DNA from: Candidatus Nanogingivalaceae bacterium
GTDB lineage: Bacteria; Patescibacteriota; Saccharimonadia; Saccharimonadales; Saccharimonadaceae
Assembly (NCBI GenBank): GCA_015257795.3
Contig: CP072208.2
Coordinates: 30,001-62,000 of the forward strand
DNA length: 32,000 bases
Direction of reading: 5' to 3'
Positions 5,398-25,870 of this stretch are shown here, in pieces. A model generated the notes under the pieces. That model was not told the DNA's origin. It ran no database searches and saw only the letters and a list, made by a program, of their open reading frames with translations. Each line of letters starts with the position of its first letter. Positions within the stretch are counted from its first letter, which is position 1. A program made the translations under genes and the position numbers.

Positions 5398-5700
5398 TTA
5401 AAGCATAACAATACCTTCTTGTGTCCAAAAATCAATTTCTTCTTTTGTTGTTTGACCATATCGAGGATCGTGCTTAGATACAATATGCATTGAAAAGTTA
5501 CCGGTCTTATTTTTAAATAAGTAGTTTCGTAATTGACGTTTGTATGTTTGCAAGAAGTCATGTCGTTTTTGTTCTGAAACCCCAGCAAAATTAATTCCTT
5601 CCACTACTTTGCGTGTAGGATTTTCTGATGAGTAAAGCTCCAAAACTACCCAGCCGTTATCTTTTTCAACAAACTCTGTGTAAAATTTAGCTTGAGCCAT
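5398..5700 (-). CDS. hypothetical protein (100 aa)
   Basis: ATG 5700 with GGAG 7 nt upstream (MAQAKFYTEFVEKDNGWVVLELY...). No family recognised. Confidence 0.6.
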   Translation of the reverse strand: MAQAKFYTEFVEKDNGWVVLELYSSENPTRKVVEGINFAGVSEQKRHDFLQTYKRQLRNYLFKNKTGNFSMHIVSKHDPRYGQTTKEEIDFWTQEGIVML

Positions 5701-5709
5701 ATGGAATCT

Positions 5710-5735
5710 CCGCGCTTAAAGCCCGCTTGGCTATA
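5710..5735 (-). promoter_or_regulatory. 26-nt conserved element, copy 2 (TATAGCCaaGCGGGCTTTAAgCGCGG)
   Basis: 23/26 identical to 25503-25528. Lies directly 5' of the SD of the 5398 gene. Imperfect palindrome TATAGCC-N5-GGCTTTA. Confidence 0.45.
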
Positions 5736-5864
5736 GATTTTTTCGAAACTTTCAGCTTCGAAAGCTGAGCTTAATTTTTTAAACTCAATTTTCGAAACTG
5801 AAAAATCGATCAATAGCCAATTTCTCACTTTTGAAATGTTCGCTTGTTTCACACAAGCTTTTAA

Positions 5865-5893
5865 ATTATATCATAAAAAAATAAAAAAGTCAA
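5865..5893 (-). promoter_or_regulatory. promoter of the 5398 gene (about 158-nt 5' UTR)
   Basis: Minus sense: AACTATTGACT with TTGACT (5893-5888), 17 nt, TATAAT (5870-5865). Confidence 0.5.
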
Positions 5894-21634: not shown

Positions 21635-21651
21635 GTATTTCAAATAAACTA

Positions 21652-25441: not shown

Positions 25442-25448
25442 TTAACTA

Positions 25449-25477
25449 TTGACAAAAATATATTTATATGGTAACAT
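25449..25477 (+). promoter_or_regulatory. promoter of the GC-rich unit
   Basis: AACTATTGACA with TTGACA (25449-25454), 17 nt, TAACAT (25472-25477). Confidence 0.5.
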
Positions 25478-25502
25478 AGTAATTACCTCTTTTTGGGGAA
25501 AT

Positions 25503-25528
25503 TATAGCCGTGCGGGCTTTAAACGCGG
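25503..25528 (+). promoter_or_regulatory. 26-nt conserved element, copy 1 (TATAGCCgtGCGGGCTTTAAaCGCGG)
   Basis: 23/26 identical to the minus strand of 5710-5735. Ends 8 nt before ATG 25537. Confidence 0.45.
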
Positions 25529-25839
25529 TACATTATATGACAAGAAGAAGAATTATTGACCACCACACAGCATATAGCGAAACGAAATGTGGGGTAAAGG
25601 CTCCTACTCAGAACAGGACGAATAATAGCCCAAATGAGCATTATGCTGTTGATGGAAACAGAAATAATGATGGGCAGTTAGCACGGTTGTCTGGACGAGT
25701 TGACGTTGACGGTAATAGGAATGGTAGTGAAAGTGAGCCGGCATGGCGAGCGCAAACTGCATGCTTTGGTGCATTCGATGGAAGTGCTCCTTGTGTTGCG
25801 CATCAAGAAGATCGTCGTTATGCAGACGATCGGTGGTAA
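25510..25839 (+). CDS. orphan hydrophilic D/G/N/R-rich protein (100-109 aa). Start is GTG 25510 or ATG 25537
   Basis: From ATG 25537 my hand count over 100 codons gives T = 13/12/42 and G+C = 56/~50/32 at codon positions 1/2/3, a strong coding periodicity. Own promoter and strong terminator. No hydrophobic core, 3 Cys, no family recognised. An ncRNA alternative is not fully excluded. Confidence 0.5.
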   Translation: MRALNAVHYMTRRRIIDHHTAYSETKCGVKAPTQNRTNNSPNEHYAVDGNRNNDGQLARLSGRVDVDGNRNGSESEPAWRAQTACFGAFDGSAPCVAHQEDRRYADDRW

Positions 25840-25849
25840 AAATCTTCTC

Positions 25850-25870
25850 GGCCTCGAAGGAGGCCTTTTT
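25850..25870 (+). terminator. strong intrinsic terminator
   Basis: GGCCTC-GAAG-GAGGCC followed by TTTTT. Confidence 0.8.

Follow-up and report, generated by a model that had tools for sequence, protein, structure and literature searches.

What is the short element that precedes two otherwise unconnected genes in the genome of a Candidatus Nanogingivalaceae bacterium, and what might it do there? The window analysed, a stretch of 32,000 nucleotides (nt) from contig CP072208.2 (positions 30,001 to 62,000), contains two orphan genes whose products have 100 amino acids (aa) each, and directly upstream of both start codons lies a nearly identical 26-mer: TATAGCCGTGCGGGCTTTAAACGCGG at 25503-25528 on the plus strand (copy 1) and TATAGCCAAGCGGGCTTTAAGCGCGG on the minus strand of 5710-5735 (copy 2). 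An earlier note made from the window alone (the original prediction) held that the match exceeds chance, that the element ends 8-9 nt before both start codons and that the two products are unrelated, and all three points were borne out. The 26-mers are identical at 23 of 26 positions and differ at three, and 0 matches to the 26-mer were found in 100 dinucleotide shuffles of the window; the distance to the start codon is 8 nt at ATG 25537 and 9 nt at ATG 5700; comparison of the products by BLASTP gave E = 22. No third copy was found in the whole genome (one contig of 663,355 base pairs (bp), 36% G+C, 99% complete), either with up to 6 substitutions allowed or by means of a descriptor built on the fold described below. 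The finding is real, and it is much larger than could be seen from the window.

The original prediction read the element either as a DNA operator or as an RNA with two mutually exclusive hairpins, AGCC/GGCU and GCG/CGC. The RNA reading stood in so far as both helices can pair and both covary. The mutual exclusion did not stand, since the strands of the two hairpins are interleaved, in the order P1-5', P2-5', P1-3', P2-3', which makes them the stems of one predicted H-type pseudoknot, formed together. The RNA consensus is AGCC-NN-GCG-GGCU-UUAAR-CGC, 21 nt long, and the generalised architecture consists of a stem P1 of 4 bp, (A)GYC/GRC(U), a loop L1 of 1-2 nt, a stem P2 of 3 bp, GYG/CRY, no loop L2, and an A-rich loop L3, UUAAR. 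Such a geometry would allow P1 (4 bp) and P2 (3 bp) to stack directly on each other. Copy 1 of the knot occupies 25506-25526 on the plus strand, with AGCC (25506-25509) and GGCU (25515-25518) as P1, GU (25510-25511) as L1, GCG (25512-25514) and CGC (25524-25526) as P2, and UUAAA (25519-25523) as L3; it is supported by its sequence, by pair counts and covariation, and by a covariance-model match of 51.4 bits. Copy 2 occupies 5712-5732 on the minus strand, where AGCC (5732-5729) and GGCU (5723-5720) form P1, AA (5728-5727) forms L1, GCG (5726-5724) and CGC (5714-5712) form P2, and UUAAG (5719-5715) forms L3; its sequence is accompanied by a match of 58.1 bits and by orthologues of this copy in 30 of the genus's 35 genomes.

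Pairing is preserved at 100% of the stem positions of 25 distinct sequences from the genus; the third pair of P1 undergoes a double change among them (C-G to U-A), and G-U and U-G variants occur in P2. Remoter copies add A-U in P2 (ACG/CGU), UGC (G-U), an L1 of 1 nt and a single A.C exception. For an unbiased test of pair 6-14, a database pattern open to all four pyrimidine/purine combinations was used. In 178 unique contexts this pair was C-G 116 times, U-A 49 times, C.A 9 times and U.G 4 times, and in the 135 matches with a Shine-Dalgarno (SD) sequence and a start codon the numbers were 89, 43, 1 and 2, respectively. These counts come from related sequences and hence carry no formal probability; the C-G and U-A forms both occur in several phyla. 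Across 136 instances A19 and A20 have no exception, and position 21 is always a purine (A or G). The pair G12-C22 is invariant save for one A.C (L059). The compensatory and G-U-compatible changes are confined to the sense strand, and the orientation of the element is always that of the downstream gene. This marks the element as an RNA and not as a site on the DNA. Nested folding z-scores are about 0 at the element, as would be expected of a pseudoknot; in the minimum-energy nested fold of copy 2, UGGCU at the start codon is bound to AGCCA, a pairing that is not kept in the orthologues. An extended P1, TATAGCC/GGCTTTA, was dropped, for its outer pairs are not conserved beyond the genus.

Scans of the genome and of its relatives, as the original prediction had proposed, showed that the relatives do carry the element. 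By covariance model the knot is present in 30 of the 35 genomes of the genus, with 1-3 true copies each, and this disposes of the possibility that only two copies exist and that relatives lack the element; searches of 95 further genera of the family and of 400 further genomes sampled from the phylum (Patescibacteria) did not find it. Matches of the model (R1) at about 20-26 bits are false. In genus relatives such matches recur at 22-26 bits (GAAAAAAATTATAAAATGTTAAACGCAGAGC) in the region coding for the N-terminus of a UvrD/PcrA-like helicase (loci L063-L072), which calls for caution in scans with short models. A scan of 185,579 species representatives gave 55 matches, of which about 17 are possibly due to chance by our own estimate; four matches lying inside GC-rich coding sequence (L083, L091, L114, L120) are consistent with that share. 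The matches include about 15 Treponema/Spirochaetaceae, mostly from termite gut, three Christensenellaceae, one member of the Eubacteriales and a metagenome-assembled genome (MAG) of Nanoarchaeota. Scanning of metagenomes added at least 120 loci, many being of termite-gut origin, and the knot occurs also in phages and in a linear virus with inverted terminal repeats. Copies per genome are few (1-4 in one count, 1-5 in another) and the phyletic spread is patchy. The "small regulon" of the original prediction survives in a weak sense only: two genes here, and one to several per genome in relatives, bear the element.

A scan of the window against Rfam at gathering thresholds returned tRNAs only, and none of its families matched the element at either locus with E up to 10; at 12 Treponema and phage loci likewise no Rfam family matched the element (a Termite-flg match lies elsewhere in L201). 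BLAST of two 31-nt versions against GenBank phages gave only matches of 16-20 nt at chance level, and a literature search by string found no paper with the element's 12-mers.

Two further contexts of the knot may be recorded here. At nine termite-gut Treponema-type loci (L149, L152, L186, L201 with 3 copies, L219, L224, L234, L240 and L258) the knot is preceded by a 15-nt hairpin that covaries, CUGYYC-GUU-GRRCAG, and by an A-rich linker, and the three together may form a larger composite motif; several Treponema-type loci head paralogous small membrane proteins starting with M(L/I)(D/E)FVK.. or zinc-ribbon proteins. On a GC-rich phage- or plasmid-like contig (L237, 6015-6060; L195) there are two intergenic knots in tandem (AGUCGCGCGGACUUUAAACGC-G-GGUCGGCAGACCUUAAACGC) without an adjacent tRNA or SD, and further copies elsewhere on the contig.

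Of 192 unique instances of the knot, 145 have an SD and a start codon on their 3' side. In 135 of these 145 the first GG falls 0-4 nt past P2, and the start codon mostly comes 10-13 nt past P2. On the 5' side there is an A-rich linker at positions -10 to -2, with A at -2 in 89-98% of instances, and frequently a hairpin upstream (the Treponema hairpin just described, CCUC/GRGG in the family of the 25537 gene, CAGCUU-UCG-AAGCUG in the leader of the 5700 gene).

A different setting was found among the viral sequences of IMG/VR, where the knot lies between the tRNA genes of chlorovirus-like clusters (L129, L132, L135, L136, L138). In four tRNA clusters it makes up 15 of 17 short spacers (21-33 nt), starting 0-2 nt after one tRNA and ending 2-5 nt before the next. 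P1 varies in these spacers among AGCC/GGCU, AGUC/GACU, UGCC/GGCA, UGCU/AGCA and GUU/AAC, P2 among GCG/CGC, GUG/CAC and GUG/CGC, and L1 is usually a single G. Two of the viral contigs measure 368,683 and 344,691 bp, sizes which we take to be those of chloroviruses NY-2A and AR158. One contig (L138) carries 7 tRNA genes, equal to the number reported for AR158 (PMC7589089); the survey of chlorovirus tRNA clusters in that paper mentions no spacer motif. Two linear contigs of about 14.8 kb (L128 and L130) carry the knot, an AGGGG SD and an ATG about 70 nt from both ends, within inverted terminal repeats, and the same AGGGG-type SD follows the knot at four loci of the Nanoarchaeota MAG (L097, L115, L139, L146); from their sequences, these contigs may represent a virus of DPANN archaea. 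Other viral contexts are phage genes (L134), repeated promoter-knot cassettes without SD (L137, L192, L210), a phage-like tRNA array (L228) and a tRNA-His followed by knot, SD and gene (L188). Since the knot is common to bacteria, archaea and an algal virus, a shared regulator is hardly possible, which points towards a protein-free function or a contact with universal machinery.

A fold of this kind has been studied experimentally in another setting. The coremin motif of plant RNA viruses (GUCCGAAGACGUUAAACUAC; PMC10520033) stalls the exoribonuclease Xrn1 (PMC6546385; Dilweg et al. 2019). Its parts are a hairpin of 3 bp, GUC/GAC, that carries a loop of 4 nt, the conserved spacer GUUAAACUAC and another hairpin, hp2; it occurs in the 3' untranslated regions (UTRs) of beny- and cucumoviruses and other plant RNA viruses (xrRNA_C). 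Randomisation of the loop and of the spacer end yielded Xrn1-resistant variants with a canonical 3-bp pseudoknot (xrRNA_WCC; PMC10321173; Dilweg et al. 2023). One of these, Hit2, with loop GGCG and spacer end CGCU on the scaffold GUC-loop-GAC-GUUAAA, is Xrn1-resistant and stimulates frameshifting, and a natural Watson-Crick example from a picorna-like virus has loop GGAG and spacer end CUCA (PMC10321173). The chlorovirus-type copies, (A)GUC-GGCG-GAC-UUUAAA-CGC-A, equal Hit2 at 18 of 20 positions (nt 2-21, except nt 12 and nt 21). No paper was found to link coremin to bacteria, phages, archaea, tRNAs or chloroviruses.

In the Watson-Crick variants G5, G8-C18 and a pyrimidine-purine closing pair are essential (PMC10321173), and the features of coremin can be compared with the present knots one after another. 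The loop-closing pair, which must be pyrimidine-purine on a stem of 3-5 bp and abolishes function if changed to G-C, is C7-G13 in the two window copies and almost everywhere else, and U-A in the viral copies with UGUU/AACU and UGCU/AGCA. The 6-nt spacer NUUAAA, sensitive to length and with essential adenines A15-A17, is found as UUUAAA in copy 1 and UUUAAG in copy 2; the coremin papers hold no test of A17G, the change that matches the latter. The second stem is present as GCG/CGC with GU, UG, AU and UA variants, and G12-C22 stands at the junction. Judged by these correspondences, the core of the knot is of the Watson-Crick coremin type.

Resistance to exonuclease may then be considered as the function. 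The genome encodes RNase Y (612 bits) as well as RNase J (472 bits), and RNase E/G was not found in it. In bacteria with such a set, like Bacillus subtilis, structures at the 5' end and SD-bound ribosomes block decay in the 5'-to-3' direction. The reading that we prefer, with a probability of roughly 0.4, is that the element may serve as a compact and mechanically robust plug, independent of protein or ligand, at the 5' edge of the ribosome-binding site, which would shield the downstream RNA from machinery working from 5' to 3'. The knot would stop or slow whatever tracks along the RNA in that direction: in this genome RNase J, after entry by RNase Y or a pyrophosphohydrolase, and in the eukaryotic hosts of the viral copies enzymes of the Xrn type. 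It would at the same time keep the SD unpaired, so that the short mRNA downstream would be stabilised and well translated, and the leader of about 160 nt of the 5700 gene could be trimmed back to the knot.

Several observations weigh against this roadblock. Coremin of the Watson-Crick type has a single G as L1, and G5A and G5C abolish resistance; in the window L1 is GU and AA, the 2-nt L1 is variable everywhere, and only copies with an L1 of 1 nt (the viral tRNA spacers, L060, L061 and L177) have G. The second hairpin of coremin, hp2, of at least 4 bp and 1-2 nt downstream, was found neither 3' of the two window copies nor as a conserved feature of the mRNA copies, and it is required for Xrn1 resistance in vitro, though not for ribosome stalling, as judged by -1 frameshifting (PMC10321173, where the screen itself used E. 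coli). Frameshifter pseudoknots of similar size fail to stop Xrn1 (PMC10321173), hence a small knot alone is insufficient. Neither RNase J nor RNase E/G was found in two Treponema genomes examined, despite many Treponema copies of the knot, so that blocking of an exonuclease cannot be its universal role. The 25537 transcript has a short leader already with its own 5' hairpin. Finally, the likeness to coremin could be convergent.

As to hp2, the mRNA copies have the SD and start codon where it would be, and the tRNA arrays have an acceptor stem 2-5 nt downstream. Because hp2 is missing in cis, we propose that its role might be taken over in trans, by the SD/anti-SD duplex that a bound 30S subunit forms or, in the viral arrays, by the acceptor stem of the next tRNA; the spacings, 0-4 nt for the SD and 2-5 nt for the tRNA against 1-2 nt in coremin, are compatible with this. 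That the present elements are the first natural coremin-type roadblock knots outside RNA viruses, acting as protein-free stops to 5'-to-3' machinery with hp2 in trans from the SD/anti-SD helix or an acceptor stem, is possible but on the doubtful side. If it were true, the mRNA would owe its protection to the ribosome, and every viral pre-tRNA would be shielded after the upstream cut.

The main rival to the roadblock is a role in translation initiation, which we regard as unlikely taken by itself, though seriously worth considering. The knot would fold on its own and insulate the SD against the leader, perhaps stacked coaxially on the SD/anti-SD helix, with an A-rich standby or S1 site upstream that is held single-stranded between the 5' hairpin and the knot, and more ribosomes would be loaded; in the tRNA arrays it would merely insulate neighbouring tRNAs against misfolding. 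The close spacing of knot and SD, the A-rich linker with its preferred A at -2 and the recurrent upstream hairpins all suit this explanation, which works in Treponema without RNase J or RNase E/G, as in every host, and has no need of hp2. However, any stable hairpin would insulate as well, so strict conservation of the fold is explained less well, and the explanation leaves unaccounted for the same purine/pyrimidine pattern and L3 adenines from bacteria to chlorovirus-like arrays, as well as the match to a roadblock fold established by experiment. The presence of only 1-5 copies per genome does not favour it either.

Less probable still is a regulated switch, a tiny riboswitch or a protein site, in which the knot, with the SD free, would alternate with a hairpin CC-NN-GCG...CGC-GG that buries the first two G residues of the SD. 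The architecture recalls the SD-proximal pseudoknots of preQ1-I, SAM-II and guanidine-III, nested folding of 25484-25545 chooses a GCCGUG/CGCGGU hairpin of similar energy, and the set of accessory genes downstream is patchy. But with L1 variable and L2 absent no conserved pocket is visible, and the CC:GG pairing is impossible in most copies outside Saccharibacteria (CGC-AAAGGA) and in the tRNA spacers. The downstream genes have no metabolic theme, no Rfam match appeared even at E up to 10, and a protein common to bacteria, archaea and algal viruses is unlikely.

The DNA operator, an imperfect palindrome TATAGCC-N5-GGCTTTA bound by a dimeric regulator, can hardly be maintained: a palindromic core does lie between promoter and start codon, but its half-sites change jointly many times (AGCC/GGCT to AGTC/GACT) with half-changed forms almost absent, the second helix GCG/CGC lies outside the palindrome, covaries too and tolerates only G-U-type changes, the outer positions T-3/A19 are not conserved elsewhere, the orientation relative to the gene is fixed, and a DNA-binding regulator shared by four prokaryotic lineages and the tRNA spacers of giant viruses is implausible.

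Some other identities were tried and rejected. A self-cleaving ribozyme, or a theta ribozyme like that of hepatitis delta virus next to the tRNAs, would be far larger and has no Rfam match here; a mimic of the tRNA acceptor stem or anticodon would have a T-arm and a 7-nt loop, which are lacking; type III antitoxin repeats do not fit a single-copy element; and a promoter or discriminator element is contradicted by the covariation and by the presence in tRNA spacers.

The surroundings of the two copies differ in detail. The 25537 gene has a promoter TTGACA-17-TAACAT at 25449-25477 on the plus strand, from which a start near 25484, about 20 nt before the knot, is predicted. Near the 5' end of this transcript a hairpin CCUC-UUUUU-GGGG (25486-25498; CCUC...GAGG in orthologues) would be followed by the A-rich linker AAAUUAU. 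A weak SD-like GGU (25527-25529) adjoins P2 and precedes the ATG at 25537-25539, and three orthologues (L025, L028, L029) retain CGY-GGUA. On the minus strand, the 5700 gene has a promoter TTGACT-17-TATAAT at 5865-5893 and a leader of about 160 nt. This long leader (5736-5864) is conserved in the genus and contains hairpins (GCUUGU...ACAAGC; CAGCUUUCGAAGCUG), TTTCGAA repeats and, at its end before the knot, an A-rich linker; an SD, GGAG (5711-5708), adjoins P2 and the ATG follows at 5700-5698. Both promoters do carry the extended -35 box AACTATTGAC, as the original prediction stated. The link it drew from this between the two genes was not upheld: there are 11 genome copies against 2.6 expected, each at a promoter of the TTGAC-17-TATAAT type (for example at 21647, 25444 and, on the minus strand, 5898 of the window), and this A-rich, UP-like extension is a general feature of strong promoters here.

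Neither 100-aa product belongs to a Pfam or PHROG family. The gene at 25537-25839 on the plus strand (family B, ..IDHHTAYS...CFG.F...C..H..RYADDRW) is followed by a terminator at 25850-25865, and it is taken to be protein-coding because its orthologues differ through in-frame indels. The family B protein is conserved in the genus and unusually G+C-rich for this genome. The motif (A)VDGNRN is repeated in it, cysteines are conserved at CFG.F and C..H, and the C-terminal RYADDRW is fixed; from this pattern it looks like a secreted or processed peptide. The other gene (family A1) lies at 5398-5700 on the minus strand, with a terminator at 5364-5344, and its slot is occupied by unrelated genes in sister species. 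The locus (5398-5735 on the minus strand; compared at L003, L004, L005, L007, L013 and L022) is syntenic across species and only the open reading frame (ORF) is swapped: homology extends to the end of knot and SD and resumes just past the ORF near the terminator. At least three unrelated families occupy the slot, one of about 100 aa (MVKVFK..), one of 133-135 aa and one of 87 aa (MAVTPCAECKR...). Four different species have the 133-aa protein with 100% identity, which speaks for its recent exchange into an expression slot that is itself fixed. Within the genus the knot precedes at least five unrelated families of small genes, and across hosts the downstream genes share no theme: leucine-rich-repeat proteins of the surface, small membrane proteins with two helices, zinc-ribbon proteins and Cys-rich peptides are encoded there, as is an ABC-transporter binding protein. 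In Treponema primitia the knot stands at an ABC-binding-protein gene. In the present genome the knot marks two orphan genes, and a slot whose gene is swapped between species, as having one post-transcriptional device in common.

Exoribonuclease-resistant RNAs are known so far from RNA viruses of eukaryotes. The match at sequence level in leaders of prokaryotes and tRNA arrays of DNA viruses would make this 21-nt fold a portable RNA module across domains, and would add to the 5'-UTR elements of bacteria and archaea a new class, unannotated and without an entry in Rfam. Its natural covariation would aid the problem of the coremin structure and of the hp2 requirement. It would also offer an explanation for the conserved 21-25-nt spacers of chlorovirus tRNAs, the processing of which is unexplained (PMC7589089), and for synthetic biology the element is a candidate for a minimal part, as stabiliser or insulator.

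How does the knot compare with known systems? In Gram-positive bacteria, stabilisers at the 5' end such as cryIIIA STAB-SD, the stalled ribosome of ermC and the 5' stem-loop of aprE place a structure or an SD-bound ribosome near the 5' end and block decay by RNase J1. They share with the present case the set of RNase Y and RNase J, but are simple hairpins or SD sequences, lineage-specific and without a conserved pseudoknot. The riboswitches preQ1-I (RF00522), SAM-II and guanidine-III are likewise small H-type knots with an A-rich L3 and the 3' strand of P2 adjoining the SD. Unlike them, the present knot has no L2, no conserved ligand-contact nucleotides and no cmscan match (E up to 10), and the genes downstream of it are orphans, with none for queuosine, S-adenosylmethionine or guanidine among them. 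For preQ1-I in particular, a covariance-model match, a conserved C in L2 and U in L1, and queuosine genes would be expected; here L2 is absent and L1 variable.

The P1-P2 knot of beet western yellows virus (BWYV) is a minimal H-type knot: its stem S1 is short, L1 has 1-2 nt, S2 has 3 bp, and the A-rich L3 is able to sit in the minor groove of S1. Luteovirus-type -1 frameshift pseudoknots of this kind resemble the present one in all of these elements, and their size has been compared with that of the coremin variants (PMC10321173). The BWYV knot has in addition a junction nucleotide and an L3 of 7 nt, and fails to stop Xrn1 (PMC10321173), whereas the present element lies outside a reading frame and without an upstream slippery site. 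Coremin is the nearest. The present knots differ from it in that they occur in DNA genomes, in 5' leaders at the SD or between tRNAs, and mostly with a 2-nt L1 without G; compared with Hit2, the window copies differ further in the GCC/GGC stem, which is a tolerated change, and in their 2-nt L1. What they have in common with coremin is the stem, GUC/GAC or GCC/GGC, the NUUAAA spacer, and a 3-bp second stem formed by the last three nucleotides of the loop and the three nucleotides past the spacer. Taken together, the sequence comparisons suggest that this knot family, undescribed in terms of Rfam, is best filed under the coremin-type pseudoknots, in a new variant form and a new context.

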